NCBI GenBank assembly: GCA_963829255.1
Contig: CAWHIG010000012.1
Coordinates: 23,314 to 87,313 of the forward strand
From: an uncultured Bacteroidales bacterium
GTDB taxonomy: Bacteria; Bacteroidota; Bacteroidia; Bacteroidales; VadinHA17
DNA: 64,000 nt
Direction of reading: 5' to 3'
The notes under the pieces are model-generated. The model was not told where the DNA came from. It searched no databases and worked only from the letters and a program-made list of their open reading frames with translations. Numbering within the stretch: position 1 is the stretch's first letter; the number at the start of each line of letters is the position of its first letter. The translations under genes and the position numbers were made by a program. Below, one piece after another: positions 38,489 through 61,010 of the stretch.

Positions 38489-38627
38489 GGGGCATAGCCG
38501 TCAACCTAAGGAGTTAAATATAGTAAAATAGTGAGAGAGTCTTATTACAAAACAGAATGTAAAGTATTGAATATATGTCTGATACATTTCCCCCCGCCAA
38601 AAGCGGGACAGGCTATCCTTTTGAAGA
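38489..38627. repeat. dispersed repeat copy B, left arm (22-bp terminal inverted repeat plus body)
   Basis: GGGGCATAGCCGTCAACCTAAG (38489-38510) is 21/22 complementary to CTTAAGTTGACGGCTATGCCCC (40775-40796). The body is homologous to 22441..22566. Confidence 0.7.
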
Positions 38628-39036
38628 CTAATCTTTATACACATCTTTGATCATATTTGAGGAGATTTCTCATTCCTGCTTTTTTACCCCCAAACCCCTA
38701 AAGGGCTTACTCTCATGTATTTTGCCCCCCTGCTCCCGCCTAAGCGGGATTAATTATCGTAACAGCATTCCCATTGTTATGTTCACAGTTGACTTCTACT
38801 GTCATGTATATAAACTAGTGATTTGGCTTAAAAGTAATCCGCTTTACCAATGATGAAGTTGTCTATAATATCAACTCTGTAATAACTACGATCCAAAGGG
38901 CTATCGACAAATTAACCCCCCTTTAGGGGGGCAGGGGGGCAAAAACCCACCGAAGACCGAGACCTTGGAGTAGAAAGGGGGCAGGGGGTAAACAACAAGG
39001 AATGAGATACATTCAATAAATGTGTATAAAGATTAG
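38628..39036. mobile_element. 409-bp MITE-like derivative with Tn5-like ends
   Basis: CTAATCTTTATACACATCT (38628-38646) and AAATGTGTATAAAGATTAG (39018-39036). Non-coding interior with GC-rich REP modules. Flanks are inverted (CTTTTGAAG / CTTCAAAAG) rather than direct. Confidence 0.65.
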
Positions 39037-39087
39037 CTTCAAAAGGAGGGGAAACTTTTTTATGCAGTTTCTCATTCATCCACAAAG

Positions 39088-40780
39088 CTTAAGAGGCTGT
39101 GTGAAAATAGATTGGTTAATAATTTTGCAAAATTGTTAAAAATTCGTTGTTAGATTGTTTATCTAATATGCTTTAAATATCTATCTTACAATTAGATAAG
39201 ATGTTGTTTCAAAGCATATTTAGTAACTGACAATGCACTATAAAAAACCAAAAGACAGAAACGAACTTCTACTCTACCCGAACATTGAGCTATGGGTTGA
39301 ACAGAATAGTCCAGTACGGTTAATAGATCTAGTTATAGAAAAGTTCGTCGAAGAAAATCCGACTGTTTGTTCCTGGGGAGGCCATAGTGATCAAGGCTGT
39401 ACTAGTTACTCCCCATCAACAATGCTCAAATTATTAATGTATTGTTATTTCAACTGGATTCCTGGAAGTCGCCGGATGGAAAATGAAACATACAGAAACA
39501 TTGAGGTAATCTGGTTGCTGGGAGAATTGAAACCAGATCACTGGACAATCTGTAAGTTCCGTCGGGAAAACTTGGCTATGATACGCTCAGTAGCTATTGA
39601 GTTCAGAAAGTTTTTAAAAAAGAGTGGTTATATTGAAGGTAAATCAATTGTGTTTGATGGAAGCAAAATGAAGGCTTATGCTGGCCGTGATGTTTATTCA
39701 GTAGATAGATTAAAAAACAGGATAGAGAACATTGAGCAGACTCTTGAAAAATATCTGGATAATGTGGAAGAGACAGATGAATTAGAGGACAGACTGGAAC
39801 AAGACTCAAATGAGAAGGTTGATTTGAAGAAAAAGATCAGGAAGCTTGAAGATGAGAAAGAGAAACTGGAAGAATTTAAAAAACAACTAAAGGAAACCAA
39901 GAAAGGAAAGTTATCACCAAGTGATCCTGATGCAAACGTGATGAAATGCAGGGATGGGAAGATGCCTTGTTATAATATACAAACCGGGGTAGATACGAAA
40001 CATCACATGATTGCACTGGCAGAGGTTACTACTGATGAATGTGATATCAATTTATTAAAACCCGATCTGGAAAATTTAACACAGCAGTTGGGCTTTACTC
40101 CCGATGAAATTGAAGCTGACAAGGGTTATGGCAACGCAACTCAAATCAGAGAGATACAGGAAACATCAGGTACAACATGTTATATTCCAATGCCAGAACC
40201 ACCAACAAAAAGACAGGACAGAGAAAATGGAATAAAATTTATATATAATCCAGATAACGACACTTTTACATGTCTAAACAATAAAACATTACAAAAACAC
40301 TCAAGAAATTACAAACAGGACGATCAAACTTATAATGTTTATAAATGCCATGATTGTAAAGAGTGCCCGATAAAGGGTAAGTGTACAATATCAAAAACGG
40401 GGAGGGCAATAAAAGCAAACGTAAATCATATATGGATAGATAATTACAGGGAATGGATAGGCAAGATAGAAAATATGGAAAAAGTCCAGCATCGAAAAAC
40501 AGTAGTTGAACATCCCTTTGGAACAATAAAAACAATGATGGGAAAATTTTGCTTCCTATTAAGGAAAAAACACAAAGTGCAGATTGAAATTGACCTATAT
40601 ACAACCGCATACAATCTAAAAAGGCTCATAAACATAGAAAATATGGAGAACTTACTCCAGAAAGTGGGAAAATTTAACTGGAAGATCGAATAGATCTCCT
40701 AACTTCAATTTTAAAATCTGCAAAAAGAGTAGCATAAGACAAGAAGAATTGAAGAGTTGATTATCACACAGCCTCTTAAG
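39088..40780 (+). mobile_element. IS1182-family insertion sequence, apparently intact
   Basis: 17-bp perfect inverted repeats CTTAAGAGGCTGTGTGA (39088-39104) and TCACACAGCCTCTTAAG (40764-40780). The palindromic CTTAAG may be the target duplication, in which case the element is 39094..40774. Confidence 0.8.
39233..40693 (+). CDS. IS1182-family (IS5-like) DDE transposase
   Basis: Uninterrupted 486 aa: N-terminal DUF772-like domain, central coiled coil, and a C-terminal VEHPFGTIK...AYNLKRL signature. Confidence 0.9.
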   Translation: MHYKKPKDRNELLLYPNIELWVEQNSPVRLIDLVIEKFVEENPTVCSWGGHSDQGCTSYSPSTMLKLLMYCYFNWIPGSRRMENETYRNIEVIWLLGELKPDHWTICKFRRENLAMIRSVAIEFRKFLKKSGYIEGKSIVFDGSKMKAYAGRDVYSVDRLKNRIENIEQTLEKYLDNVEETDELEDRLEQDSNEKVDLKKKIRKLEDEKEKLEEFKKQLKETKKGKLSPSDPDANVMKCRDGKMPCYNIQTGVDTKHHMIALAEVTTDECDINLLKPDLENLTQQLGFTPDEIEADKGYGNATQIREIQETSGTTCYIPMPEPPTKRQDRENGIKFIYNPDNDTFTCLNNKTLQKHSRNYKQDDQTYNVYKCHDCKECPIKGKCTISKTGRAIKANVNHIWIDNYREWIGKIENMEKVQHRKTVVEHPFGTIKTMMGKFCFLLRKKHKVQIEIDLYTTAYNLKRLINIENMENLLQKVGKFNWKIE

Positions 40781-40840
40781 TTGACGGCTATGCCCCTCCG
40801 GGGGAGTGCCCGAAGGACGGTTGAGCGAGAGGATCCCGCT
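40775..40840. repeat. right terminal repeat of repeat B plus a GC-rich module
   Basis: CTTAAGTTGACGGCTATGCCCCTCCGGGGGAGTGCCCGAAGGACGG..., immediately 3' of the lipoprotein gene that ends at 40850. Confidence 0.65.
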
Positions 40841-40849
40841 TATACTTAT

Positions 40850-41662: not shown

Positions 41663-41970
41663 GTTATAACAGGTTAGTAATTAAAAGTAAACGATAATGG
41701 TGCAAACAAATTGCAGATAAAGTGCAAAGATATAAAGACAGAATCTAAAAACCCTGTTTTAATAATTTATTATTATACTGAATTCCCTGACAAATTGTTT
41801 CATTTATCCGGGAAAAGAAGGCAAGATAGTTTTTTAATTTAATGCAAGAAAAAGCTGTCAACGATAAGAATATATCAATCATTTTTATATTTTTGAGTTT
41901 GTTGGAGATTGTAGGGGAGAGTTGATTAAATTCTGATAGGTAAATATTTAATATTCTATATTAAATTACT

Positions 41971-43268
41971 ATGCGCAAATACTCCCTGGCAGGAAATATA
42001 AAATATTTACTTTCTCTTATTTTCCTTTCTGTTATTATTTTTCCGGCTCTGTCAAATTCACAACAGGTACCGGATACCTCGAAAGGTCAGAAAAAAGATA
42101 CAACCACGACCCAGAAAAAAGATACAACCAGAATTCAGGTAAAAGACACAACGAAAATTCAGGGGAAGGATAGCCTTAATCTTCATGCAACAGATACTGT
42201 AAAACAGGAGTTACCTGATTCAATAATCTTTAAACAGACTGTTTTTAGTGCTGAAGAGCTAATACGGGGTGAACGGCTCTTCAATGGCCTTGTCTACCTT
42301 GGAGACAAATCAATTAATTGTGCAGCTTGTCACAATACAAGCGTATCTGATACTTTGAACTGGAATCCTGATGCCCTGGAGATTTCGAGGAAGTATCTTG
42401 ACAAAAATGCCCGTGATTTAAACGGGGTGCTGCTTAAGCCTTTAGGCCAGAAAATGAAGCTGGTACATAAAGGATTTCAGCTGACGCCGAAGATATAGTA
42501 CTGATCAAAGCCTACATGGATAAATTTGTGGGAATCGGGCTAAAAAAGGATAAGCCGGTTATTACATATCTTTTATTACTTATCATTGCCTCGTTATTAT
42601 TTCTTTTGTCAACAGTTGATCTTATAATTAAAAGAATTTTTAAAAATCAGAGGATTAACTGGGTCATACTTACGATTACCGGAATTTTTATAACCTGGAT
42701 TCTTGCTGTTAATGCAATTGCATTCGGACGTTCAAAGGGATATTCACCGGCTCAGCCGATTAAATTTTCACATGCCGTTCATGCCGGACAAAACAAGACA
42801 GATTGTAACTATTGTCATTATACTGCAAAAATCAGCAAAACCGCAGGAATTCCCCCGGGCAGTGTCTGCATGAATTGCCATTTCCTTGTACGCAACGGAA
42901 CACGGTCAGGGGCAACGGAGATAGATAAAGTTTTAAAAGCTTTAGAAGATAATAAAGCTGTCCAGTGGGTAAGGATTTACAGACTTCCTGATTTTGTTTT
43001 TTTCAGTCATGAACAGCATGTAAGTGCAGGGGGAATCACCTGTGAAGCCTGTCATGGGAATGTAAAAGAAATGAACAGACTTTATCAGGTACCTGACCTG
43101 TCAATGGGATGGTGTATCAATTGTCATAAAACCAGGAAAGTAAATCTGTCAAACGAATACTATAAAACTTATTATCCGGGATTTTACGACTCTCTGAAAG
43201 CCGGGAAGATCGACAGTGTTATGGTCGCAGGTATCGGAGGCAGGGATTGCGGTAAATGTCATTACTAA
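41971..43268 (+). pseudogene. actA: alternative complex III subunit ActA (mono-heme plus penta-heme cytochrome c), one frame break
   Basis: CAACH in the first ORF. CNYCH, CMNCH, CEACH, CINCH and CGKCH in the second. The frames join as ...QLTP|EDIVLIKAYMDKF... if a G is added at 42489. Confidence 0.8.
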
Positions 43269-43293
43269 TAATAATCAATATAATTCCTAAGGG

Positions 43294-46250
43294 ATGAAAA
43301 AATATTGGAAAGATATTGAGTCAAAAAACAGTAACGGAGAAGTCAGAAGTATCGAAAAAACATCTGATGAAAATGCAATTTTCGACCTTTTTAATGAGGA
43401 AATAAAAGACATCTCCGCATCAAGAAGAGACTTTCTGAAATTGTGCGGATTCAGCTTTGCAGTATCAGCCCTTTCAGCCTGCCGGTCAAAAATATCCAAA
43501 GCAGTTCCCTATGTTATTGCTCCGAATGAGATAACACCCGGTGAGGCTCTTTATTATGCTTCAAGCTATGTTAATGGCAATGATTATTGCAGCATCATTG
43601 TAAAGACCAGGGATGGACGGCCTATTAAGATTGAGGGTAATCCTGAATCGTGTATTACCAGAGGAGGAACGAGTGCAAGAGTCCAGGCTTCAGTGCTGGA
43701 CCTGTATGACGGAGCAGATTCCGCGGACCGCTGAAAAATGGAGTATCCGCAGGATGGGAATCGCTGGATGATGAAATCATCCAGAAACTTCAGAAAATAT
43801 CAGAAGAGAAGGGACTCATAGTCCTTCTCACCCCCACAATATTCAGCCCCTCAACCGAAGCTGTAATTTCAGGGTTTCTCAGAAAATACAAAGGCTCGGA
43901 ATGGATACAGTATGATGCTATTTCATATTCTGCAATCCTTGAAGCCAATAAGATAACCTTCGGAAAGCAGGTAATTCCTGACTACCGGTTTGACAAGGCA
44001 GAAATGATATTAAGCCTTGGAGCCGATTTTCTTGGCACGTGGCTTTCTCCTACTGAATATACAAGACAATTCAGTTCCCGAAGAGATCCTGAACACGATA
44101 TGAACCACCTTATTCAGCTGGAATCCAATATTAGCCTTACCGGCAGCAATGCCGACCAAAGAATTCAGATAAAGCCATCCCAGGAACCTGCAATACTGAT
44201 GAATATTTATAAAGAGATTATGAAAGCTGTTGAAAACCGGAATTTCATGCTCCTGCTTCACCTGTTGATGTAACCGAAATATCAGAAAGCCTTCTTTCTC
44301 ACAAGGCAGATCAATTGTAATTTCAGGTTCAAATGTGAAACAGATACAACTTATTGTAAATGAGATCAACCGAATGCTGGGAAATATCGGACAGACAATA
44401 TTATTCGATTCATACCTGAGGACACACAATGCTCTTGACAGCAAGATGGAAGCTCTTGTCAGAAAGATGCAGAAAGGCAGGGTTAATGCGCTTTTAGTCT
44501 GGAATGTAAACCCTGGTTATACATGGTACAACAGAGAAGGTTTTAAGAAGGAGCTTAAAAAGGTTGGCCTGACAGTATCACTTTCAGGTTCTCCCGATGA
44601 AACCAACAATCTTGTTCAGTATATCTGTCCCGATCACCATTACCTTGAAAGCTGGAATGATGCTGAAGCAAAAAAAGAACATTTCAGTCTGATGCAACCT
44701 GCAATCAGCCCTATCTTTGATACCCGTCAGATGACCGATTCCCTGTTAAAATGGTCAGGATCGAGTTAGGATTCTATGATTTTATCAAGGATTACTGGGC
44801 TAACAATATGATGCAGCGGCAAACGGAGTTCACAGACCCGGTTTCTTTTTTTGATCACACTTTGCAAAAGGGATCTTTGAACCCGGTCCCGGGCATTGGA
44901 AAATGCGACCATGAAGAACAAATCCGCACATTTCCTTTTGATCCTCAGTCATTTAAAACTGAAGGCAGCAAAGATAAAAACAGCATTGAAGTTATACTTT
45001 ATGAAACTGTTACTGTTGGTGAGGGAGGCAGGCAAATAACCCCTGGCTCCAGGAATTACCCGATCCGGTAGCAAGGATCTGCTGGGATAATTTTGCATCA
45101 GTTCTCCTGTACAGGCAAAGGAAAATGATTTGAAGGACAGTGATATAATCAATCTTGAGGGATTGAATTACCGGTACATATTCAGCCCGGCCAGGCATAT
45201 GGCACAATCGGAATTGCCCTTGGATATGGTCGTAAAATATGTGGAAAGGTAGGTAATGGGTTGGAACAGATGTATGGCCAATGTTGTCTCTGAGGGATGG
45301 GAATATAATCTATATTGGAAAATCTGACGGTTTGTCAAAAACAGGAAAGATTTACCTCTTTGCGCAGACACAAACTCATCATAGCATGGAAGGCAGGGCA
45401 TTTGTGCGGGAAGCAGAGCTTACTGAATACAGAAAGAATCCTTCAGCCGGCAATGAACTGCATACATATAATCTTGAACATAATAAAAGTCTGTATAAGG
45501 ACAGGACATATCCTCATCATCACTGGGGAATGGCAATTGATCTCAACAAATGTACAGGATGTGCAAATGTGTTATAGCCTGCCAGGCAGAAAACAATGTT
45601 CCGGTTGTCGGAAAGGAAGAGGTACACCGGGTTCATGAAATGCAATGGATAAGGATTGACAGGTATTACACCGGCAATGAAGATAATCCGGAGGTTGTTT
45701 TTCAGCCTGTTTTATGCCAGCATTGCCAGAATGCGCCATGTGAAAATGTTTGTCCGGTTGCAGCAACAAATCATAGTTCCGAAGGTCTGAACCAGATGAT
45801 ATATAATCGTTGCTTTGGTACCCGGTACTGCAATAATAACTGTCCCTATAAAGTCAGAAGATTTAACTGGTTCAATTATACTGCTGCAGGCACACTTTCC
45901 GGCAATCTGAGGGAAAGAGGGAATGACAGGTGATCTCCGGCGGATGGTCCTTAATCCTGATGTAACTATCCGGGCACAGGGAGTCATTGAAAAATGTTCA
46001 TTCTGTATTCAGCGGATACAGGCAGCAAAGCTGAAAGCTAAAAACGAGAACGGGCGATTCCTGAAAATGAGATTCAGACAGCCTGTTCACAGAGCTGCCC
46101 GGCAAATGCAATTGTATTTGGAGATATGAATGACAAGGATAGTGAATTAGCAGGCTGATCAGCAGCGGAAGGAGATATAATCTTCTCGAGGAATTATATA
46201 CCAGGCCTTCGGTTAATTATCTGACAAAAATAAAAAACAAGATTATTTAA
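43294..46250 (+). pseudogene. actB: ACIII subunit ActB (Tat-exported molybdopterin-like plus 4Fe-4S subunit), at least 8 frame breaks
   Basis: Tat motif SRRDFLKLCGF. Collinear fragments at 43294-43734, 43731-44273, 44305-44769, 44751-45071, 45281-45577, 45550-45933 ([28 protein letters not shown]) and 45923-46129, with a tail to 46250 (...LEELYTRPSVNYLTKIKNK). Confidence 0.85.
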
Positions 46251-46268
46251 ATACCAATTCTTAATAAT

Positions 46269-47633
46269 ATGTTTCAATCTCCCCTGCGGAAGCCTTTAAT
46301 AGAAGGGACAAAAACTTACCGGAGCATTACCAGCGACATCCTTAATCCGATGATGAAAAGGCTGGTAAATATTGGTATTTGGGGATGACTTTATCCGGTC
46401 TGGCAATGATGTTTGGAGTATCATGATGTTCTGGACGGTCTGGCAGGGGATAGGAACCTGGGGAGAAAACAGAACAGTCGGCTGGGCATTTGAAATAACA
46501 ACTTTTGTCTGGTGGATCGGAATAGGACATGCCGGCACATTTATCTCAGCAATACTTCTTCTTTTCCGGCAGAAATGGAGAAACAGCATCAACCGTTCGG
46601 CTGAGGCAATGACAATCTTTGCAGTTATCTGTGCTGCACTTTTTCCTCTGATACATCTTGGGCGTCCGTTACTGACATTTTTCATTTTTCCTTACCCGAA
46701 TACACGGGGAGTATGGGTGAATTTTAATTCTCCGCTGGTATGGGATGTATTTGCAATTTCAACTTATTTTACAATTTCACTGGTATTCTGGTATGTGGGA
46801 CTGATTCCGGATATCGGAACTGTGCGCGATAAGCTTAAAAAGGGATTTAAAAAGAGCATTTATAATTTTCTGAGCTTCAGCTGGAAAGGATCTGCAAGAG
46901 ACTGGCACAGGCATGAGATCACATCAATCATGCTTGCAGCAATTGCCACTCCTCTGGTATTATCAGTACATAGTATAGTAAGTATGGACTTTGCCACATC
47001 AATACTTCCGGGCTGGCATACCACAATTTTTCCTCCTTACTTTGTTGCAGGGGCAATATTACTCCGGATTTGCAATGGTTCTGACCCTGCTGATAATTGC
47101 CAGAAAGGCAATGAAGCTCGAGGATTATATAACTGTGGAGACATGTGGAAAGCATGAATAAAATACTTATTGCTACAGGATCAATCGTGGCACTGGCATA
47201 TATGGCGGAGATATTTATTGCCTGGTATTCTGGGGATGAATATGAACATTATAATTTATGAACCGTGCAACAGGTCCTTACAACTGGGCATATCTGATAA
47301 TGATTATCTGTAATGTAGTCTCATCCCAGTTACTATGGATTAAGAACTCAGAACAACCTGGCATTTACATTCTTCCTCTCGATTGTAATAAATATCGGAA
47401 TGTGGTTCGAACGTTTTGTGATAATTGTAATTTCACTTCACAGGGACTTTCTGACATCAAGCTGGACAATGTATAAACCGACAATTGTTGAGTACGGTTT
47501 ATTGATCGGGACACTGGGGATTTTCTTCACATCATTTCTTCTCTTCATACGTGTTTTCCCGGTAATTTCAATCTTTGAAGTAAAATCAATCCTTAAAACG
47601 GGAGAAAACATAAGCATAATTCAGATTCAAGCC
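46269..47633 (+). pseudogene. actC: ACIII subunit ActC (NrfD-like quinol-binding membrane subunit), at least 3 frame breaks
   Basis: Polytopic fragments at 46269-46386, 46372-47157 ([23 protein letters not shown]), 47258-47476 and 47400-47633. Confidence 0.8.
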
Positions 47634-48079
47634 ATGAGAAAACGGAATAATATATCAATATTTTTTGATGATGAGAACCATTGCTCCAGGCTGTCAGAAA
47701 ATTGCGTGACAGTAAGGAGATCATAAATGATGTCCTGTCTCCTTTCCCGGTTCATGGACTTGATGAAGCTCTATCAATTAAGCGATCACGGATCCCGGTT
47801 GGTGGTTTTATTTTCGGTGCTCTTGGCGCAATATTGGCATTTGGTTTTCAGGCATGGGTCTTCACAGTCAGTTACCCTCTGATAATTGGCGGAAAGCCAT
47901 TTTTTGCAGCACCTGCCTTTATCCCTATAACTTTTGAATTTACCGTTCTTTTTGCAGGACTGTCGATGGTTGCTGCATTGCTGATAAGATCGAAGTTAAA
48001 ACCCGATATTAGATTTAATCCGGTTGATAAGAGAATTACTGATGACAGATTTGTAATTCTGGTTGATGCAGAAGAATAG
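47634..48079 (+). pseudogene. actD: ACIII subunit ActD (DUF3341), one frame break
   Basis: MRKRNNISIFFDDENH is in one frame and LLQAVRKLRDSKEIINDVLSPFPVHGLDEAL... in the next. The break is near 47680. Confidence 0.75.
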
Positions 48080-48156
48080 AAACGACTTGAAAAGAGTAAG
48101 ATCGCTTTTATCAGGAATTCAAACAGTAGAAATCAGATAATAAGAATACTGCAACC

Positions 48157-49317
48157 ATGGATGAACAATTTGATTTCAAAAAGAAGTACCGCAATATCCT
48201 GTTAATCTTGATGACCGGAGGTATTCTGCTTTCTTTGCGGCAATACTGATATCAAAACCCGGTGCTTCAAGGATCTGGGCAAATATACTGCTCAATAATC
48301 AATATTTATGGGCATCTCCCTGGGTGCAGCATTTTTTCTGGCTGTTCACAGGGTTTCCCAGTCGGGTTGGCATACTCTCCTCCAGAGAATACCTGATGCC
48401 ATGACAACTTTTCTTCCGGTGGCATTTGTTCTGATGCTACTTATATATTTTGGTATGCACGATCTTTACAGCTGGACGGATAATAATGTATCTGACAAGG
48501 TGATAGCAGGGAAAAGAGCCTGGCTTAATATTCCGTTTTTCTTTATCAGGATGGTATTTTATTTCGCGGGCTGGATAATCCTTACCCGGCGATGAAGAAA
48601 AATTCAGGTGCTCTTATGACTTCTTCAGATATAAAATTTCATAACCGGAAAATATTATTTGCTGGTCTTTTCCTTGTTTTTTATGGTATAACTGTTTCAG
48701 CAAGCAGCTGGGACTGGATTATGTCTCTTGATCCACATTGGTACAGCACAATTTTCGGATGGTATGTTCTGATCGGGATGTTTGTGACATCTCTGGCATT
48801 CATTACATTGCTTATATGGTTTCTAAAGAGGTTGGGGTACCTTAAATATATCAGGGCAGATCATGTTCACGACATGGCTATCCTGATGTTCTCCTTCAGT
48901 ATATTCTGGACTTACCAGTGGTTTGCTCAGTACGAGCTGATATGGTATGGACACCTTCCTGAAGAAACATCTTATTATATTACAAGAGTCCATCATTTTA
49001 AGGCTGTTTTCTTTATTAATCTTGGAGTTAATTTTATAGTTCCGTTCTTCGGTCTGATCACTTTCAGATCGAAACGGCAAATTGGCTGGGTGGCCATAAT
49101 CGCTGCTATTGTACTGGTCGGTCACTGGATAGATTACTGGCTGATGATAATGCCTGCTGCGGCAGGTGAAAAAGCAGGCATAGGCGTTCTTGAAATTTGC
49201 ATGACGATGATTTATGCCGGTTTATTCATATTTATTGTATTAAGATCTCTTTCAACCGGTCCGCTTGTTGTTAAAAATGATCCTTATCTTGAAGAAAGCC
49301 TGAATTATGAATCATGA
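48157..49317 (+). pseudogene. actF: ACIII subunit ActF-like membrane subunit, at least 2 frame breaks
   Basis: Fragments at 48157-48246, 48308-48595 and 48592-49317, all polytopic and consecutive. Confidence 0.7.
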
Positions 49318-49948
49318 AAGCTATTCAAAAATGAAAATGTCCATTGAAAAACGAATATCAATCAAAATCCTGGTTCTTCTGCTGACGGGATTAATTCTTT
49401 GGTCATGTGACAGAAAAAAGAATATGCGCGGATATGACTTTATTCCGGATATGGTTTATTCACAGGCTTATGAGACATTTTCAAAAAATCCGAATTTTAG
49501 GGACAGTGCCACAATGAGAGTTCCGGTTAGTGGAACAGTCCCCATAGGATTTACTCCTTTCAGATATACAATTGATTCGGCATCACGCATCAAGGCCGGA
49601 AAAGAGCTCCTTAATCCGTTTTTACCGACAGAGGATGTTCTTGCAAGGGGGAAGCTCATATTTACGACATTCTGCATTGGCTGCCATGGGGCTCTCGGTA
49701 AAGGTGATGGCCAGCTTTTCAGCAGCGGACTCTATCCATTAAAACCTCGGGATATTTCAGCTGCCCCGACTGCTAAGTTAAAAGATGGGCAGATATATCA
49801 TACAATCACCCTCGGATTTGGGTCTATGATGCCGCACGGAGCTCAGATAAGACCTGATGACAGGTGGAAGCTCGTCCTGTATGTAAGAGTGCTCCAGAAA
49901 GAAGCGCAGCTGGCAAAGGACACAATTCCAGCGGGGAAGTCAAAGTAG
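49307..49948 (+). CDS. mono-heme c-type cytochrome lipoprotein (ActE-like)
   Basis: Lipobox LILWSC and a single CIGCH heme motif; 213 aa, intact. Confidence 0.75.
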   Translation: MNHESYSKMKMSIEKRISIKILVLLLTGLILWSCDRKKNMRGYDFIPDMVYSQAYETFSKNPNFRDSATMRVPVSGTVPIGFTPFRYTIDSASRIKAGKELLNPFLPTEDVLARGKLIFTTFCIGCHGALGKGDGQLFSSGLYPLKPRDISAAPTAKLKDGQIYHTITLGFGSMMPHGAQIRPDDRWKLVLYVRVLQKEAQLAKDTIPAGKSK

Positions 49949-50005
49949 AATATCATTGATGGCGTGGATCTGAAATTACAATTCCGCAAAACCGATTTCG
50001 GATCT

Positions 50006-50876
50006 TTACATTATTATCCTGTCCGAAATCAACAAAACCAGTATCAGCAGAAAGTAAGAATCAAGGAATATTGAATATCTTCTGAAGTTATTATTTTCAT
50101 GCTGTATCTTCAGCAGATCAATAAATTGCCAGATCAGATAGATAGAGACCACAACGAGAATCACATTTATAACCGGGCTTTGAATAATTTCAAAATAGCA
50201 CAGGAATAGCGCTGCAACCACAGAGGAAACTACCCAGATAAATGTTAACCTTTTAATCTGTGAGCTGTTAAAGATTTCCGTAAGACTTGGAATCCCTGCC
50301 TGCTTATATTCTTCCCCATATTTCAGGATCAGAAGCCAGAAATGAGGAATTTGCCCGATAAAAAACAGAAATTCAATGAAAATAATGGGTTTATCCCATA
50401 TCCGCCACCGGCGGCTACCCATCCAATAAGCGGTGGCAATGCACCGGTAACAGCGCCAGGGACAACCGCAAAAGCAGTAATCCTTTTGGAATAAGTATAT
50501 ATCCCGTTGTACCAGATAATAGTAATCAATCCAATCAGCATTGCTTTAAGGTTCCTGCAAAATAAGTAAGTGCAATGCCTCCGATAAGATTAATAAGCAA
50601 AAAAAGTATTGCATGTTGAATCCTGATCTTTTTGAGGAAGCGGGCGATTGCATGTCCTGTTCATTTTTTTGTCCGCTTCTATTTCCTGTATCTGGTTTAG
50701 AACTGATGAGGAGATTGCCATCAGAAGAATTCCTAAACTAGTAAGAAAACTTTCGAAGAAAAATGAGGATCAAATGCAAAATAGCCGGTGAATCCTGTCA
50801 GACTTACCGGAATCATAATTTTAAGCTTTGTTAATTCCAGCCAAACCTTAAGATTATTTTCCGGTTTATTTGTCAT
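50006..50876 (-). pseudogene. ctaB: protoheme IX farnesyltransferase (heme O synthase), at least 3 frame breaks
   Basis: MTNKPENNLKVWLELTKLKIMIPV... (ATG at 50876, overlapping the coxII stop), ...[38 protein letters not shown] and [26 protein letters not shown] lie in different frames. Confidence 0.8.
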
Positions 50877-51815
50877 TAAGAGTTTTCAGGTATTCAATTA
50901 TTTTCAGAATATCATCATCACTTAAAGTGCCACGGTAACTTTGCATGAGGTTTGCAGGGAATCCTTTAGTAATATCAGCATTGGGTTCAAGAATGGATCT
51001 TTTTACGTACACGGGATCAACAGTAACCGTCACTTCTTTTCCATCTCTTAATACTACTTGTTGTGAGCCGTACAGGTTTAAATAACTGGGGCCGATCAGT
51101 TTCGTTCCGTCAGGTGTATGACATGCAAAACATCCCTGGGCCCTCATGATAGCTTCTCCTGCTGCACCAGGACCACTTCCGGTCACAACAACAGGTTTGG
51201 CGCTTTCAGCATACCAGACCTTGAATTTATCCTGTGTCATAACATTAACTGTTGAATGCATATAAGAGTGCTGCAGTCCACAATATTCAGCACAAAATAT
51301 TTTATACTTTCCTTCCATTTCTGGCAGAAACCACATAAATTTTTGTCTTCCGGGTACTATATCGGACTTTATTCTGAAATCAGGAATGAACAGACTATGA
51401 ATCACATCTAAAGAAATAAGGTTTACTTTAACAGGAGTATTCACGGGAACTACCAGATCGGGACTTTGTTTTCCATTTTCATATATGAACATGAAAACTC
51501 CACATTCTTGCAACTGCTTGTAATATTCATTGCATCTTTCGGAGGTTTGGCCGTAGGTTTCCAACCTGCCCATCCCAGATGAAACATAAACAATGCCAGT
51601 ATAACCGGAATAACTGTCCAGGTAATCTCCAGAGCAGTATTTCCTTCGATCTGTGTTGCTACCGGATTCTTCTTCTTGTTGTACCTGAAGACAAAATAGA
51701 TCATTGTAATAGTAAGCCCTATCAGAAGCAACAACGATACGCCGGCAATAAAGTAAAACGCAGTATTGTACGTTGACACATAATTTGAAGCTTCAATTCC
51801 GGTAGTTGAATACAT
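50866..51815 (-). pseudogene. cytochrome c oxidase subunit II with fused cytochrome c domain (caa3 type), frame-broken
   Basis: The N-terminal two-TM fragment (51450..51815) and the cupredoxin part (50866..51573) are in different frames. CuA motif CAEYCGLQHSYM and C-terminal CFACH. Confidence 0.85.
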
Positions 51816-51820
51816 ACAGA

Positions 51821-52100
51821 TTATCTATTGAGGTAGTCCAGAAGTGTTATAGTTATTACAGCACAAAACAGCAATATGACACCTATAACCGCTCTTGAAA
51901 ACATTTTATTTTCAAATTTAAGATGCATGAAAATGCGCAATACAAACGAGGATTTAACTGCGGCTATAATGAGGGCGATAGTAACCGTCAGTAGCACCCA
52001 GGGAAATTTGTGTAAGAGTTACAGAGGTAAGGGTAAGTGCAATTAATCCTGCCAGTACATACAGAAATGTTCTATAAGGGATTATATGAGTTTTTTTCAT
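51821..52100 (-). pseudogene. cytochrome c oxidase subunit IV-like small membrane protein, one frame break
   Basis: My translation: MKKTHIIPYRTFLYVLAGLIALTLTSVTLTQISLG..., then a shifted frame gives ...LTVTIALIIAAVKSSFVLRIFMHLKFENK.... No ORF of 60 aa or more survives. Confidence 0.6.
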
Positions 52101-52121
52101 TTTCCATAGTCTGCATCGGAT

Positions 52122-52715
52122 TCAGGTGATGAGATAAAACAGTGGAAAGAGGAAGATCCAGATGAGGTCAACAAGATGCCAGTACAATCCGCTGTTTTCA
52201 AGTAAAACATAATTTTCGGAGTTAATTTTATCTCTGAAAATTGACACTGCAATAACCGTAATAAAAACCAGTCCGATAATAATATGAAGGGCATGAAGTC
52301 CGGTCATAAAAAAGTAAAGACCATAGAACAGCACATCCCCATGACCACGCAGAGCGAGAACAGCAGATCCCGGATAGATATGTTCCTTAAGATGTTCTCC
52401 CCATTCAAAGTATTTATTTACAAGAAAAGCCAGGCCGAGAAAGATAGTTATGCCCAGAAGCAGAAGTGCGAATCTTTTGTTATTTTTCTGAAGCGCCGTT
52501 ATCGACATTGCAATTGTTGTACTGCTTATAAGAAGAATAATTGTATTGATTGTACCGATAAAAACACTTAATTCCTTAGCTGCCAGATGAAATGCGATTG
52601 GATTTCTGTACCTGTAAACGGAGTAAACAATAAAAAGCCCTCCGAACAGCAGCATTTCAGTAAACAGAAATAACCACATCCCGGTTTTAGATGTCAGATC
52701 GTCTCGGTGTGTCAC
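52122..52715 (-). CDS. cytochrome c oxidase subunit III
   Basis: 197 aa with GMWLFLFTEMLLFGGLF and HALHIIIG. Apparently intact from a GTG start. An upstream ATG at 52731 is out of frame. Confidence 0.8.
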   Translation of the reverse strand: MTHRDDLTSKTGMWLFLFTEMLLFGGLFIVYSVYRYRNPIAFHLAAKELSVFIGTINTIILLISSTTIAMSITALQKNNKRFALLLLGITIFLGLAFLVNKYFEWGEHLKEHIYPGSAVLALRGHGDVLFYGLYFFMTGLHALHIIIGLVFITVIAVSIFRDKINSENYVLLENSGLYWHLVDLIWIFLFPLFYLIT

Positions 52716-52727
52716 TAAAATCTGTAT

Positions 52728-54334
52728 TCATTTATAGTCATATGGTCCTTTGGTTATTACAGGGATTTCTTCAAAATTTTCAACCGGTGGCGGGGAAGTG
52801 AATAGTCCATTCCAGGGTTTTGCCGCCCCAGGGATCTGAAGGTGCTTTGGTTCCGCTTCTTAATGAAGAAATCAGGTTAATTATAATTACAGCCAGTCCG
52901 AAGTACATTACCATAGCTCCAAATGAGGAAAAAATATTTCCGGTGTGAAATATTTCATCATAATCATAATACCTTCTGGGCATACCTTTCATTCCAAGGA
53001 AAAACATTTCACCGTAAAGCGTGATAAATCCGGCAAAGAAAATAAGTAAACCTATATTGGCCCATCGGGAATCATACATTTTACCGGTAATTTTCGGATA
53101 CCAGTAATGCATAGCGCCAAAAAAGGCAAAACCGGTTCCTCCGAAAACAATAAAATGGAAGTGGGCAACAACAAAATGTGTGTTATGCAGATGAATATCG
53201 GTAGCAAGTGACCCCAGAATAAGTCCTGAAAATCCTCCAATCATGAATACAAAGAGGAACCCGACTGCCCAATAAAAAGGAGTTTGCAGATCAATTGAAC
53301 CTTTATGCATGGTAGCTATCCAGTTAAATACTTTTATCGCACTGGGGATTGCTACAATAAATGTCAGCAGTGAAAAAGTATAAAGAGCTGTTCCGCTCAT
53401 TCCGGAAGTGAACATGTGATGGCCCCAGATAAAATAACCGACAAACGCAATAGCAATGCTTGAAGCAACAATGAATTTATAACCGAATATTGTTTTGTGA
53501 CAAAAGTTGGTATAATTTCAGAAATTGCCCCCATTGCAGGCAAGATCATAATATAAACTGCCGGATGGCTGTAAGTCCAGAATAAATGCTGATAAAGAAG
53601 AGGATCTCCTCCCAGTGTCGGATCGAAAAAACCAATATGTAAAGTTCTTTCAGCAACTATCATAAGCAATGTGATCCCGATTATTGGAGTGGCAAGCAGT
53701 TGTACCCATCCTGTAGCATATAGTGTCCAGGGAAATAAAGGCATTTTCAGCCAGGTCATTCCGGGAGCACGCATCCTGTGAATAGTCACTAAAAAATTCA
53801 GTCCGGTAAGTATGGATGAAAACCCAAGGACAAATGCCCCAAAAACTGCCGGAAGCATATTCCGGTTGTTCTGAAACTGTATGGAGCATAGAATGTCCAT
53901 CCGGTATCCGGAGGTCCCTGCCCTGTAAATTGTGAGATCAGCACTAGTGAAACACCGGTAACATAGAAATACCAGGAAAGGAGATTAAGTCTTGGAAAAG
54001 CAACATCTTTTGCCCCGATCATAATCGGAAGGAGGAAATTGCCGAATACGGCAGGCAGTCCGGGAATGACAACTGCAAAAATCATTATAATGCCATGGAG
54101 AGTAAAAAACGCATTATATGTCTGTGCGGTCATAATAGTTTTGCCCGGGGCAATGAGCTCAAACTTCATTAATAAACCAAGAGTAGCTCCTACGGCAAAG
54201 AATGTAAGTAAAGAAAAGAGATACAATAAAGCAATTCGTTTATGATCAGTGGAGAGTATCCAGGAAAATATTCCTTTATATTTTCCTTTATAATCCAGAT
54301 AACTGGGTTCAACATTATTCTTTTGTCTGATCAT
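52728..54334 (-). pseudogene. cytochrome c oxidase subunit I, at least 3 frame breaks
   Basis: Consecutive fragments at 53798..54334, 53397..53900 ([19 protein letters not shown]) and 52780..53415 (MFTSGMS...HFHFIVFGG), plus a shifted C-terminal tail ending at 52728. Confidence 0.85.
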
Positions 54335-55124
54335 CTATTGATCCTTGATTTTGATTTTACACGGGAAAATGCCAGAACAATAAATACCAATACCATTATG
54401 AACGAAATAACAATTGCTGAGACTCTCGTTACATTAAAAACAAACTGGTTTCCTTTGGTATCATACGAATAGCAAACTGCAAGCAGGCGGTTTATACTTG
54501 GCCCGATTTTTCCTTTTGCAGCTTCAACCATAGTGATTTTGATGTCAAATGGCAGAAATTCAATTCCCCTCAGGTAACGTATAATCTTTCCATCAGAACC
54601 AAGAGCGATCAGCCCTGTAGGATGCACATACTGATTGTTTATCTTTTGATAATTGAATCCAACGGATTTGGTTAATTTGGCAATGTTCAGACTGTCGGAT
54701 ACAAAAAAATGCCAGTCTTTTGCTGCCTCTTTATTCTTCATCGTACTGACGTAAGCAGCTTTCTTTTTAATACCCAGATCGATTTTTTCAGTAGGATCAA
54801 AACTGATTGTAATAACTTCATAGTCCTTACCCAGTTTAAGATCGACATCCATCTATGAATTTGGAGATTCCCCACATCAGAGGACTGCACGTTCCGGCAC
54901 ATTCAAAATAAACCAGATTGAGAATTGCTGGTTTATTAATAACATCTTTTAATAAGAACTGTATCCCCATTCTCATTAACAAGTTTTGTATCAAGGGCAG
55001 CAACTGGCCTTGTTTCTCGTCAAAACTAACCTGCATCTGCTTGTCAAACAGAGGCTGTCTGAGAAAATGAGTCAATGCTGATCAGACAAATAAATAATGC
55101 CAGAAACAATTTGAGTTAATTCAT
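54331..55124 (-). pseudogene. SCO1/SenC copper chaperone, at least 2 frame breaks
   Basis: Signal-like LKLFLALFICLIS after an ATG at 55124 with TAA as codon 3. KPAILNLVYFECAGTCSPL (CxxxC) in ORF 54836..55075. DYEVITISFDP... in ORF 54331..54852. Confidence 0.7.
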
Positions 55125-55215
55125 AGTAATACATAAGGATATTATTGTTATAAAGATATTATAAATTTCGTCAGGTTAAATCAAATATAATCTTCGTTTC
55201 TCTACACCGGATATC

Positions 55216-55596
55216 TTATTTTTTTTGTTCTTCTTCCTCGGAATATATACCTGCAATCATCAATGATCCTCCCATAAGTGAGATATCTTTTAAAAGTGCA
55301 ATTATTGTAGAAGTTTTGTCGGCATCAATAAAAAGGTGCGGAATGTGAATTGTTACGATAAAAATAAATAACAGTATTGCCAGCAGAATTGTTGACAATT
55401 TCACAAACTTTTTTGTAATTATACTGATACTGGCAGCTATCAGCATTATACCTGTAAGAATTATTGTGTATGCCCCGAGCGGTATAAAGGAAGTCAGCAC
55501 TCCCAGATAATAATCTGTCATCAGGAAATGGTTAATCCCGAAAAGTGCAAATGGAATTGCAAAAAGAATTCTTCCGAGAGCAGTGATTTTTTTCAT
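55216..55596 (-). CDS. DoxX-family membrane protein
   Basis: 126 aa, four TM helices, N-terminus GRILFAIPFALFGINHF. Confidence 0.6.
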   Translation of the reverse strand: MKKITALGRILFAIPFALFGINHFLMTDYYLGVLTSFIPLGAYTIILTGIMLIAASISIITKKFVKLSTILLAILLFIFIVTIHIPHLFIDADKTSTIIALLKDISLMGGSLMIAGIYSEEEEQKK

Positions 55597-56490: not shown

Positions 56491-56525
56491 TACTTCTTTC
56501 CGGGAACTGCTTATTTTCCTTGAGT

Positions 56526-56556
56526 TTGCCCCCCTGCCCCCCTAAAGAGGGGTTCG
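56526..56556. repeat. GC-rich REP-like module (inverted orientation)
   Basis: TTGCCCCCCTGCCCCCCTAAAGAGGGGTTCG is the reverse complement type of 58401..58432. Lies 36 nt after the SOD stop. Confidence 0.8.
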
Positions 56557-56587
56557 TTCAGCTATATCTCTTTGGATTGCCCCCCTG

Positions 56588-56602
56588 CCATCTTTATACA
56601 CA
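56588..56602. repeat. solitary Tn5-like IS end remnant
   Basis: CCATCTTTATACACA matches the ATCTTTATACACA core of the end at 38628. No partner end or adjacent matching interior. Confidence 0.45.
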
Positions 56603-56753
56603 ATTTTTTTCATAAAACTAGTTAGAGAAGCGGTGTTGTTATTTTTCAGTAGAAGCTGCGAGCCAGTGCTGGTTTGGGATATAGCATACAGATGGCAAAT
56701 TCGGCACCGCTTCTTATTTACCGCGATGTCAGTTATCCTATTATGTTTGTTTA

Positions 56754-58249
56754 TTAGCGGTGAAATTCGCCACTAATTCTCAGTGCCATCTTGTGCAAGT
56801 AGTCTTTGTCAATGTATTTTGACATAAAATCAAATCCATCCATTTTACTATAAAAGTCCACCAATCCGTTTTTCATTGTAATATAGCCGGGAGGTCCGTG
56901 CGATTTGTATCCGCTCCAACTGCCCATTCTGGCAATACCCCATGCTGCCCATTGTATAGTTCCTTTATCGTATGGATTCTTCTGCTTTTCAGTTTTACCT
57001 TCAAGCTCATTCATATAGATATTCATGAACTCTAACTCTTGTTCAGAAAAAATTATGTTTGCTTTTACTTTATGACTGCTGTCAAGAGAAAGTCTTAAGG
57101 TCATTATCCTTAGTCCTACCTGAAGGGCAAGTACAATCAGCTTCTTCAGTCCTGCTCCCGATTCAAGCTGGGCCTCCTCAAAGCAAAGACCTTTAGTTTT
57201 GAGTAAATGAAAAAGTTCTTCTATTAACCATCTCTGACTGTACCATTTAACGTATTTAAGTGCATCATCCGCATTTTTGACTTTATGAGTAGTAACTAAT
57301 GTCCATGAGATCGGATCTTCTCCAGGTTTAACACTCACGGGAAGTTCCCTGGCTTCTATTACCGTTACTTCGTATAAAAGGCGGAATACCATCCTTTATA
57401 GGCCTTTTTGAAGGGTGACCAAGCTTTACTTTCTCCCATTTGAGAGACATCTTCGCTGTATGTTTTGTCCTGTTTTTACCCTTTGGATACATCGAACTCG
57501 TACATGGATCGAACACTTGAAGAGGATATCTTTTTATTTAATTTAATTCCTTCGGATAGCACTCTATCAATATGGGCTCTTATTAACAGATGTGTTCTGC
57601 TGTCTGGTACTGTTGCAAATATTTCATATATATCGCTTTCCCTATCTCCGATTATCGTTATACTATCGGCTTCGCTTAAAGATTCTTTGGTTTTTAGGGC
57701 ACTCGCAATCCATCTATAGGACTCTTTCTCGGTTATATCCAACTTCTTATAATCACGCTCATGCTTGTTTTCCTTATCCCATGATCTATTCCATAGAATC
57801 ATTGATGAAAAGCCAACTGGCATGTCAGTTGAAGGATCAATCACAAGTGTCGGATGGAGGAAAAATCCTGCATTAGTCCACTCTTTTCCAGGATCTTCTT
57901 TCGTAACAGGACCGATATCTCTATCCTCCTTGCCAATCCGTCCCATGTGAGATGTAAAATTATTCTCTGTAGTGTCTTGAATACAAAGATAATGGCCACC
58001 ATTGACATTTTTCTTTAACTGTCTAATGGCCCCTTCTGTCAAATCATCATAATCAAAGCTGTCGTTGAGAAGCATCCTGTAAGCTCCTTCCTTTTCGGCT
58101 AAGGTTTTGCAACTTTTATTTATTACTGCACTACCTCTGTTTAACAAAGCTAACATTAATCCTTCAACTCGCTTTTCTAATCTGGCATCTGGGAGTAAAC
58201 CCTGATAGGTGCCTGTAAAATAATTTTCTTCCATGTATATAATATACAT
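56754..58249 (-). pseudogene. Tn5-like DDE transposase, split over three frames
   Basis: ORFs 57476..58249, 57328..57516 and 56754..57392 are collinear with the 22567..23992 transposase (for example GAYRML, ESYRWI, IIGDRESDIYE, WYSQRW.IEELF, GPPGYI). Confidence 0.8.
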
Positions 58250-58360
58250 GAAAAACTATAGTTATATATCTGATAATCAGCTATATATATCAACAAAACA
58301 GCATAAGTTATTAACATTCAATCACATAGCTAATATATAAATAAATGTGAAATGACGTAG
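56754..58360 (-). mobile_element. second, diverged Tn5-like IS4-family copy, degenerate (left boundary undefined)
   Basis: Candidate right end AAATGTGAAATGACGTAG (58343-58360) lies 126 bp beyond the transposase start, against 131 bp in the first copy. No matching left end found. Confidence 0.55.
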
Positions 58361-58400
58361 CAACATCTCAAATATAGAAAACCCGGGTAAACACCGATTG

Positions 58401-58482
58401 CGAACCCCCCTTTAGGGGGGCAGGGGGGCAAAAAAGGGGGAGTGCCCGAAGAGCCTGCCCCGCAAAGCGGGGGCGAGGGGGT
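58401..58482. repeat. GC-rich REP-like modules
   Basis: CGAACCCCCCTTTAGGGGGGCAGGGGGGCAAAAAAGGGGGAGTGCCCGAAGAGCCTGCCCCGCAAAGCGGGGGCGAGGGGG, ending 4 nt from the acyl-CoA ligase stop. Confidence 0.8.
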
Positions 58483-58485
58483 ATA

Positions 58486-60462: not shown

Positions 60463-60538
60463 AATGGATTTGAAGGGGGTAATAAGACATTATAAATGAG
60501 ATACGGTTACTAATTAAAAGTCTCTGATAAATTTAATT

Positions 60539-61002
60539 TTGAATTTTATGAGTAATATAATAAGAGTTACGAAGGAATTCCCTTTTGAAATGGCACATGT
60601 ACTATGGAATTACGATGGTCCCTGCAAAAATGTTCATGGCCATTCATATCGGTTTTTTGTAACAATATCAGGAATCCCGGAAGACAATCCTGACAATCCA
60701 AAGAATGGAATGGTGATAGATTTTAGCGATCTTAAAAAGTATAGTTAAAAAGGAGATAGTCAATGTCTTTGATCATTCGGTGGTAGTTAAGCAATATGGT
60801 AGACAGGGAAAAGACAGAGATGTTTAAAAAGATGTTCGGAAATACTGTGCTGGTAGGCTATCAGCCGACCTGTGAAAATCTGGTAGCTGATTTTGCCGGA
60901 AGGATTACACCTCAACTTCCTTCCCGGGTTAAATTACACAGTCTTAAACTTTATGAAACAGCAACTTCGTTCGCCGAATGGTTTGCTTCAGATAACCAAT
61001 AA
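60539..61002 (+). pseudogene. queD: 6-carboxytetrahydropterin synthase QueD, two frame breaks
   Basis: FEMAHVLWNYDGPCKNVHGHSY in frame 1. SIVKKEIVNVFDHSVVV in frame 2, after the A5 run at 60734-60738. VLVGYQPTCENL in frame 3, with the break at 60790-60830. Confidence 0.8.
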
Positions 61003-61010
61003 AATCCACT

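Follow-up and report, generated by a model that had tools for sequence, protein, structure and literature searches.

The approximately 45 frame breaks in the ACIII-caa3 respiratory genes of an uncultured Bacteroidales bacterium (VadinHA17) are best explained by a locally poor long-read consensus and not by evolutionary decay. We put the probability of this reading at about 70%, and the broken genes are probably not a biological discovery. The window, that is, the whole stretch of DNA that was analyzed, comprises 64,000 nt (GCA_963829255.1, contig CAWHIG010000012.1, positions 23,314-87,313 of the forward strand). Positions 41971-55124 contain ActABCDF with a cytochrome c gene and a convergent set of CtaB, CoxII (fused to cytochrome c), CoxIV, CoxIII, CoxI, and SCO. 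A sequence-only reading had suggested that the lineage recently abandoned aerobic respiration and that the whole module is eroding, with a locally poor consensus as the alternative. Consensus error is favored because of the lesion spectrum, the lack of substitution decay, the lesions in housekeeping genes, and the pattern found in Nanopore MAGs.

The lesions were placed by frameshift-aware protein-to-DNA alignment of intact orthologues to the window, and nucleotide alignments were made to the closest relatives, L083 (90% identical), L085 (87%), and L081 (94%). The genes of the block and their lesions (+1, insertion; -1 or -2, deletion) are:

41971..43268 (+), ActA, multiheme cytochrome c subunit of ACIII; 432 aa when repaired; 1-nt deletion at 42491
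43294..46250 (+), ActB, Tat signal, molybdopterin-like and 4Fe-4S; ~990 aa; 15 deletions, of which 14 remove 1 nt and one (45913) removes 2 nt
46269..47640 (+), ActC, NrfD-like membrane subunit; 7 lesions, -1 at 46357, 46419, 47253, and 47608 (C-terminal), +1 at 47061 and 47135, -2 at 47346
47634..48142 (+), ActD, with PF11821 matched by the orthologues in relatives; deletions at 47678, 48078, and 48087
48157..49317 (+), ActF, second NrfD-like membrane subunit; 387 aa; 1-nt deletions at 48236, 48307, and 48588
49307..49948 (+), ActE-like monoheme cytochrome c; intact, the sole untouched gene of the block
50006..50876 (-), CtaB/CyoE heme O synthase; 290 aa; deletions at 50399, 50553, 50634 (2 nt), and 50744
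50866..51815 (-), CoxII, CuA site and C-terminal cytochrome c domain (caa3 type); +1 at 51492 and 51518
51821..52116 (-), CoxIV; 97 aa; +1 at 51991 and 52090
52122..52731 (-), CoxIII; 202 aa; +1 at 52723, parting the native start from the remainder
52728..54334 (-), CoxI; 535 aa; +1 at 52799, -1 at 53505 and 53859
54331..55124 (-), SCO/SenC copper chaperone with CxxxC motif; +1 at 54849, 54957, and 55055, -1 at 55001

The block is a normal, recently functional ACIII-caa3 respiratory module that occupies the same place in close relatives. Intact operons syntenic with it are present in related Bacteroidales metagenome assemblies at 80-94% DNA identity, with the identical gene order (ActA-B-C-D-F, then the cytochrome c). 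The window fragments were collinear with the orthologous operons of L082 and L083, which are annotated with PF03916 (NrfD), PF11821 (ActD), and cytochrome c families. All the motifs quoted from the sequence were found: CAACH in ActA, SRRDFLKLCGF and a 14-letter motif in ActB, and CAEYCGLQHSYM and CFACH in CoxII. A single operon thus holds two NrfD-like subunits (ActC and ActF), ActD, a multiheme ActA, and a monoheme ActE, as expected of ACIII, together with an ActB-like subunit with Tat signal, molybdopterin-like and 4Fe-4S ferredoxin parts. In the sequence as given, 29 frameshifts in ActA-F prevent full-length translation of the subunits that they hit.

Repaired ActA had 95.6% amino-acid identity to its counterpart in L083 and a weak NCBIfam match to QrcA. 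Three of the ActB deletions (44872, 44891, and 44923) jointly restore the frame, and the repaired protein has 987 aa with SRRDFLKL and the Fe-S motifs. Its matches to QrcB- and QrcC-like models fell short of the cut-offs; full-length 990-aa ActB homologues carry PF13247 and PF12838, and some also PF00384. The oxidase has the composition of a caa3-type (A-family) heme-copper oxidase, with a CtaD-family CoxI, a CoxII with CuA and CxxCH sites, CoxIII, and CoxIV. CoxII scored above the cut-off of TIGR02866 (158.8 bits vs 147.7), and repaired CoxI, which contains X residues, fell just below that of TIGR02891 (650 bits vs 670.75). PF00510 and PF03626 were detected in the oxidase orthologues, and repaired CoxIV was 96.9% identical to that of L085. 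Neither Rfam families nor tRNAs were found in scans of the entire window.

In Rhodothermus marinus and Flavobacterium johnsoniae, ACIII (ActABCDEF) lies beside the operon for a caa3-type cytochrome c oxidase. The window resembles these systems in its subunit set (multiheme ActA, Tat-signal ActB, NrfD-like ActC and ActF, ActD, and a monoheme cytochrome c) and in the oxidase genes alongside, including the CoxII-cytochrome c fusion, SCO, and heme O synthase. It differs from them in that 11 of its 12 genes are frame-broken.

The orthologue alignments upheld the earlier naming of the genes, the collinear order of their fragments, and a local excess of frame breaks, and they extended the count. More than 20 disruptions in 10 of 12 genes had been reported; the disruptions are real but were understated, at 45 indels in 11 genes. 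ActE and CoxIII had been described as the only intact genes, which holds for ActE but not for CoxIII, where the insertion removes the first three or four codons and leaves a 197-aa ORF with a GTG start. The single-nucleotide loss in ActA is at 42491 instead of 42489. The minimum of eight frame changes in ActB proved to be 15, and the lower bounds for ActC (at least 3), ActF (at least 2), CtaB (at least 3), CoxI (at least 3), and SCO (at least 2) are consistent with the 7, 3, 4, 3, and 4 that we placed. One or two had been counted in CoxII, where there are two, and one each in ActD and CoxIV, where there are three and two.

The frame-shifting indels lie across 42491-55055, at approximately 1 per 286 bp, and are accompanied by one nonsense codon, a TAC to TAA change at codon 3 of SCO (55116-55118). 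The neighboring 270-aa gene (40850-41662) and the genes for DoxX, Tat-signal SOD, an AMP-dependent ligase, and LspA are frame-intact, as had been noted for SOD and DoxX. Outside the block, IS elements aside, five breaks had been reported; five genes are indeed broken, by six lesions (approximately 1 per 8-9 kb). They include:

near 3340, HemN/HemW-like radical SAM gene; frame-broken
near 36870, CreD; frame-broken
within 60536..63813 (+), queD-like gene; +1 at 60734 and 60789
within 60536..63813 (+), polA; +1 at 61989

The HemN/HemW-like gene is heme-related, and its breakage would fit a loss of respiration. The lesion density in the block is approximately 30 times that of the remaining window; the excess had been recognized, at an estimated ten-fold. 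An equally high frameshift density over the entire assembly had been named as grounds for dismissing decay, and within the window the rates are 1 per 8-9 kb outside and 1 per 286 bp inside. Almost no lesions lie in the window's first 34 kb, so poor quality is not uniform across the assembly. Next to the dense stretch, 2.43 kb of coding sequence (the first 174 ActA codons, upstream of the first lesion, the 270-aa gene, DoxX, and SOD) is lesion-free, which has a probability of 2e-4 at the block's rate, so the local enrichment is real. Within the block an uneven spread was not established: a clean stretch of 1.8 kb (48589-50398) was not significant (P = 0.054).

This distribution argues against an artefact. 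The dense patch (42491-55055) nearly coincides with a functional module, which is unexplained by consensus error, and the coincidence argues for biology because an error process should ignore gene function. The corresponding alternative is genuine, very recent pseudogenization, in which oxygen respiration was dropped and the ACIII-caa3-SCO-CtaB genes are decaying, mostly by single-base indels. In its favor are the match between patch and module beside intact DoxX, SOD, and 270-aa genes, the 30-fold density, and the additional break in the heme-related HemN/HemW-like gene. Lineage-specific IS and MITE insertions, often seen in degrading genomes, point the same way. Any such decay would be recent, because the 50399 deletion in CtaB is absent from the 94%-identical contig L081. 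For the reasons developed below we consider this alternative unlikely; among them, identical lesions are present in polA and the queD-like gene.

The block lies between stretches of mobile DNA, as the sequence-only reading had stated:

38489..40796, mobile DNA absent from relatives; MITE plus IS1182-like element
38720-38944, MITE of 225 nt; inverted ends the same as those of the IS4-like element
39088-40780, IS1182-like element; 486-aa transposase intact
56525..58432 (-), IS4-like element absent from relatives; 32-nt terminal inverted repeats, transposase split over two frames

Just the 32-nt inverted-repeat motif of the IS4-like element recurs, at the MITE and as a solo end at 63905. An IS-mediated deletion, or a low-copy interval between two elements, was rejected since the IS1182-like and IS4-like elements belong to different families. 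The lesion patch also ends approximately 1.7 kb and 1.5 kb short of the elements.

The lesion spectrum does not resemble that of natural pseudogenes, with their nonsense mutations and many indel sizes. The 45 lesions comprise 34 deletions and 11 insertions, all of 1 nt except three of 2 nt, and no in-frame or larger indels were found in the block against the 87-90% identical relatives. The size distribution of indels in bacterial pseudogenes is a long-tailed power law; in free-living Burkholderia, 42 deletions total 1,662 bp (PMC6054270). Even if 70% of natural indels were as short as 2 nt, the probability that all 45 would be is 1e-7. Premature stops account for 131 of 346 gene inactivations in Salmonella (PMC2916853), and at that share the probability of at most one nonsense change in 46 lesions is 9e-9. 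Most young Salmonella pseudogenes also have just one lesion (346 of 378; PMC2916853), which counts against decay in the block. Pseudogene clusters of Salmonella Typhi, Sodalis, and leaf-nodule Burkholderia are similar to the block in that a whole module is disrupted with IS elements near. They differ in their many nonsense mutations, power-law indel sizes, and faster non-synonymous change (PMC2916853, PMC6054270).

The sequence context of the lesions is not a signature of replication slippage. The base removed had no identical neighbor in 21 of 31 single-base deletions (50% expected at a random position), and 8 of the 11 insertions added a base with no identical neighbor. Runs of four or more bases hold just one lesion, and none is in a long homopolymer. 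Replication slippage and homopolymer-type errors (454, Ion Torrent, or the homopolymer deletions typical of Nanopore) were both rejected as sources, most lesions being at non-repeated bases. No common sequence motif, such as a methylation site, was apparent by eye in the listed contexts. Along the DNA the order is 18 deletions, 2 insertions, 13 deletions, 6 insertions, 2 deletions, 2 insertions, 1 deletion, and 1 insertion. The two types thus cluster spatially (8 runs; permutation p = 1.5e-4), which counts for error because mutation is not expected to give a position-dependent error type. Small indel size, the lack of slippage context, and this clustering all weigh against pseudogenization.

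The context also bears on whether programmed ribosomal frameshifting or transcriptional slippage could allow the genes to be expressed despite the breaks. In favor of such recoding, conservation of the repaired proteins is perfect, as under continuing selection. The lesions, however, lack a slippery motif in common and any poly(A) or poly(T) tract, 15 events in one gene would be unprecedented, and the relatives encode the same proteins in a single frame. We regard recoding as extremely improbable.

After frame repair, the genes showed no sign of relaxed selection, either as raised dN/dS or as an excess of lineage-specific replacements. The dN/dS of repaired genes against relatives was 0.04-0.15, the same as for the intact flanking genes, and amino-acid identity likewise agreed with that of these neighbors. 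Replacements specific to the window numbered 115 vs 94 specific to the sister, and 80 vs 90 without ActC. At sites invariant among relatives, replacements were found at 0 of 265 in ActF, 1 of 426 in CoxI, 2 of 137 in CtaB, and 20 of 629 in ActB; repeating the ActB count with each relative in turn gave 11-37. Random substitutions in the block genes would give a stop codon in approximately 4.4% of cases and change the amino acid in 73%. Real decay producing 45 indels should also have brought many neutral substitutions, but there is one stop and no replacement excess. With one nonsense codon, no larger deletion, and no rise in replacements or dN/dS, the proposal that the lineage abandoned aerobic respiration was not supported.

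In ActC the raw counts were 35 vs 4 lineage-specific replacements, of which 26 fell at positions that do not vary among eight relatives. Relaxed selection in ActC was rejected: the same residues are present in the intact 458-aa ActC proteins P0241-P0246, which belong to another lineage, and the excess therefore reflects mosaic ancestry and not decay. The central and C-terminal part of ActC has an ancestry different from L083. The dS to L083 is 0.14 for ActA and 0.57-0.69 for ActB and ActC, and the locus is a recombination mosaic.

Such a mosaic is compatible with a mixed cause, in which the island would be carried by part of the population or vary among co-assembled strains, leaving low or conflicting read support and a failed consensus there; the indels would be artefacts, and their location would mirror a real heterogeneity of the population. 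This would explain why a patch of technical error follows a functional module, and the patchy errors in the metagenome-derived L006 (below) are in keeping with it. Against it, the different flanking IS families offer no simple recombination-deletion route, the patch ends short of both elements, and lesion density has no consistent tie to divergence (SOD has a dS of 1.2 and zero lesions). We consider a mixed cause quite improbable.

Consensus error of the kind that we favor was found at the same locus in other assemblies. L006 is a Microflora Danica MAG of the same clade; the MAGs of that set were built from Nanopore reads alone with Flye and given one round of Medaka polishing (PMC12313526). 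Compared with L008, to which it is 92% identical and whose genes are unbroken at the locus, L006 has 50 single-base insertions, 36 of them not beside an identical base. They are patchy (21 in 2.2 kb vs 6 in 9.2 kb) and break DoxX, SOD, and the ligase as well as ActB, ActF, CoxI, and SCO. Another such MAG, L012, is shattered too. L001-L004, L007, and L011, judged short-read-assembled by their contig naming, are intact at the locus, as are L082-L085, which are not among the loci judged short-read. The pattern is thus present in long-read-only assemblies and absent from short-read-style loci. Against pseudogenization, the same appearance arises artefactually in Nanopore MAGs of this clade.

The block shares with long-read indel artefacts its single-base indels, their patchiness, the hits to essential genes, and the lack of a substitution signature. 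Lesions of this kind also split polA, the queD-like gene, the HemN-like gene, and CreD, although the block's immediate neighbors are spared. Two differences from L006 are that the window's patch is confined to 12.6 kb near the operon limits, whereas the L006 flanks are also hit, and that deletions dominate the ACIII half of the window's block, whereas insertions dominate L006. No assembly of the same species was present in the collections searched, the best matches being 94% identical in DNA and 95% in protein. The best ActE match (95%) was on a 1.2-kb contig, an exact-protein look-up of an ActF fragment gave no match, and a metagenome scan with CoxI gave no relative above 87% DNA identity.

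We suggest that single-base insertion and deletion errors accumulated in a poorly supported stretch of consensus, from a source that would be long-read and probably Nanopore, and that similar errors are spread more thinly over other parts of the window. Local read support would be low, owing perhaps to low coverage or to collapsed strain variation. A locally poor consensus, offered earlier as the alternative, fits the evidence much better than erosion does, given the polA and queD-like lesions and the pattern in Nanopore relatives. It is rather unlikely that the frameshifts are instead real and that a free-living Bacteroidales has just shut down its entire ACIII-caa3 chain by non-slippage single-base indels, perhaps linked to its own broken polA, with no substitution signal yet.

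If erosion were real, the block would capture a soil or wetland Bacteroidales in the act of giving up oxygen respiration, within a few per cent divergence. As a consensus artefact its value is cautionary: a neatly bounded 'pseudogene' block can stem from patchy long-read errors, and lesion spectrum, substitution symmetry, and cross-technology comparison can together separate error from decay without reads. Taken at face value by annotation pipelines, the block would yield 11 pseudogenes, and aerobic respiration would be wrongly scored as absent from the organism.

Dozens of short ORFs occupied the ORF listing at 41971-55124, with long ORFs in the remainder of the window. A scan restricted to one genome for each species found syntenic loci in Bacteroidales MAGs of fen, permafrost and Danish soil origin, at about 74-82% DNA identity to the window. 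Protein look-ups and a metagenome scan gave closer contigs:

L081: spans 49245-50422, 94% DNA identity to the window
L083: spans 40848-49772, 90%
L085: spans 50016-63814, 87%
L082: 85%

In the relatives, the genes for alternative complex III (ACIII) are full length (ActA, 424-448 aa; ActB, 990; ActC, 449-461; ActD, 169; ActF, 387), as are the accompanying cytochrome c (203-213 aa) and the convergent set of haem O synthase (290 aa), CoxII (315, with a cytochrome c domain), CoxIV (97), CoxIII (202), CoxI (535) and SCO (263). Gene identities were confirmed by NCBIfam and Pfam matches, and the cluster is an unremarkable example of the ACIII-caa3 arrangement known in Bacteroidota.

Using frameshift-aware protein-to-DNA alignment and nucleotide alignments to L083 and L085, we placed 45 frame-shifting indels at 42491-55055, with a mean spacing of 286 bp (31 1-nt deletions, three 2-nt deletions and 11 1-nt insertions), and a single nonsense change at SCO codon 3. 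The sequence-only reading had described this island as shattered, and alignment to intact orthologues bears this out; its coordinates are correct, and the break counts it gave are minimum values. It had taken only the ActE-like cytochrome c and CoxIII to be intact. The former is the sole block gene without a lesion, but CoxIII has lost its native start to a +1 insertion at 52723.

The local excess of breaks that had been noticed is real, roughly 30-fold for the block over the remainder of the window, because splits outside the block are few and the remaining housekeeping genes at 1-34 kb span their Pfam models end to end. The 270-aa gene, DoxX, Tat-signal SOD, AMP-dependent ligase and LspA are frame-intact neighbours; for Tat-SOD and DoxX, alignment to orthologues agrees with what had been proposed. 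The splits outside the block are in the IS4-like transposase and the following genes:

2437-3577, minus strand: HemN/HemW-like radical SAM gene, split into a 78-aa and a 300-aa piece that lie in different frames
36080-37388, minus strand: CreD, two frames (170 aa and 260 aa); intact (435 aa) in L082
60536-60999, plus strand: queD-like gene (6-carboxytetrahydropterin synthase-like), upstream of polA, two +1 insertions
61011-63813, plus strand: polA (933 aa in L085), split at 61989 by a single +1 insertion that separates the 5'-nuclease from the 3'-5' exonuclease domain

Within the first 34 kb, no break was found other than the HemN/HemW-like split, in a haem-related gene. The segment containing CreD, an HxlR-like regulator and a 230-aa gene is present in L082 and absent from the relatives' loci L002 and L004.

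The block is, as had been noted, bracketed by mobile DNA, at 38489-40796 (MITE and IS1182-like element) and 56525-58432 (IS4-like element), which the relatives lack:

38720-38944: MITE, 225 nt, with the same ends as the IS4-like element
39088-40780: IS1182/IS5-like element, 21-nt inverted ends, intact 486-aa transposase (DUF772 + DDE_Tnp_1_6); adjoins the MITE, absent from L002 and L082
56525-58432: IS4-like element, 32-nt G/C-rich terminal inverted repeats (TTTGCCCCCCTGCCCCCCTAAAG...), transposase in two frames
63905-63936: solo end of IS4-like type, directly after polA

A third mobile element probably lies at 22501-24060. ORFs 23311-23916 and 22567-23229 resemble two in-frame pieces of a DDE transposase, and neither had a Pfam hit. 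About 150 nt at 22501-22587 recur at 38541-38648 (83-91% identical), and 63 nt at 23994-24056 match an intergenic stretch of L083.

The sequence-only reading preferred erosion of the respiratory module and gave a locally poor consensus as its alternative. The breaks themselves stand, and we now consider a locally poor consensus their best explanation, with a probability of roughly 0.7, given the lesion spectrum, the lack of substitution decay and the Nanopore control described below. Real, very recent decay of the module is unlikely. The spectrum speaks against it: none of the 45 indels exceeded 2 nt, and no in-frame indels relative to close relatives were found in the block. Natural pseudogene indels have a long-tailed power-law distribution of sizes, and free-living Burkholderia lost 1,662 bp across 42 deletions (PMC6054270); in Salmonella, 131 of 346 inactivations were premature stops (PMC2916853). 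Assuming that at most 70% of natural indels are that short, 45 of 45 at ≤2 nt has P = 1e-7 or less, and one nonsense change among 46 events has P = 9e-9 at the Salmonella share. Nor is the sequence context that of slippage: in most single-base deletions (21 of 31) and insertions (8 of 11) the affected base had no identical neighbour, and only one lesion lay inside a run of 4 or more. Deletions and insertions formed 8 spatial runs (permutation p = 1.5e-4), and this clustering by type points to a position-dependent error process. In addition, polA and the queD-like gene, outside the module, bear lesions like those of the block.

Substitutions also argue against decay. After frame repair, the block proteins were 79-97% identical to those of relatives, and dN/dS was 0.04-0.15, equal to that of intact flanking genes. 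In a relative-rate count, window-specific and sister-specific replacements numbered 115 vs 94 in the block, 80 vs 90 without ActC, and 27 vs 25 in the flanks. Changes at sites invariant in relatives were few in ActF (0/265), CoxI (1/426) and CtaB (2/137); ActB had 20/629, against 11-37 when each relative was counted in this way. Of random substitutions in these genes, about 73% would alter the encoded residue and 4.4% would introduce a stop codon. The 45 indels thus came with essentially no neutral substitutions. We know of no natural mutation regime with this outcome.

ActC was an apparent exception (35 vs 4 lineage-specific replacements). Relaxed selection was rejected there, as another lineage has intact 458-aa ActC proteins (P0241-P0246) with the same residues, and the central and C-terminal part of the window's ActC (46700-47620) groups with them. 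The locus is a recombination mosaic, with mosaic ancestry in the ACIII operon at 43294-47640. Along the locus, dS to the closest relative, L083, varies from 0.14 to 0.69 (0.14-0.23 in ActA, ActF and the neighbouring gene; 0.57-0.69 in ActB and ActC).

A control at the same locus came from Microflora Danica MAGs, which are Nanopore-only assemblies made in Flye and polished once with Medaka (PMC12313526). In L006 (CAWFKG010000016.1) and L012 (CAVPGA010000009.1) the locus is likewise shattered, by dozens of single-base indels, and L005 and L010 have one split gene each. All loci judged from contig naming to be short-read-assembled (L001-L004, L007 and L011) are intact, and L082-L085 are intact as well. 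Compared with L008, which is 92% identical and has unbroken genes at this locus, L006 shows 50 inserted single bases, of which 36 have no identical base beside them. Their distribution is patchy, with 21 in 2.2 kb but 6 in 9.2 kb, and they fall in respiratory genes but also in DoxX, SOD and ligase. L006 shares lesion type, patchiness and clustering by type with the window, and module erosion cannot explain its pattern.

Some tension remains. The dense patch almost coincides with the module, whereas a purely technical process should ignore gene function, and 2.43 kb of adjoining coding sequence (ActA up to codon 174, the 270-aa gene, DoxX and SOD) is lesion-free (P = 2e-4 at the block's rate); this favors real decay. 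The thinner scatter of lesions near 36.9 kb and at 57-62 kb suggests that quality is lowered over a wider region, of which the patch is the dense core. Another possibility is low or conflicting read support over the patch, through strain variation or an island present in part of the population; a hybrid of this kind, with population heterogeneity as the cause of the patch, seems somewhat less probable still than decay. These two proposals answer the match between patch and module in part. Taken at face value, the public records L006 and L012 would be read as carrying eroded respiratory operons, and inference of gene content from these records needs care.
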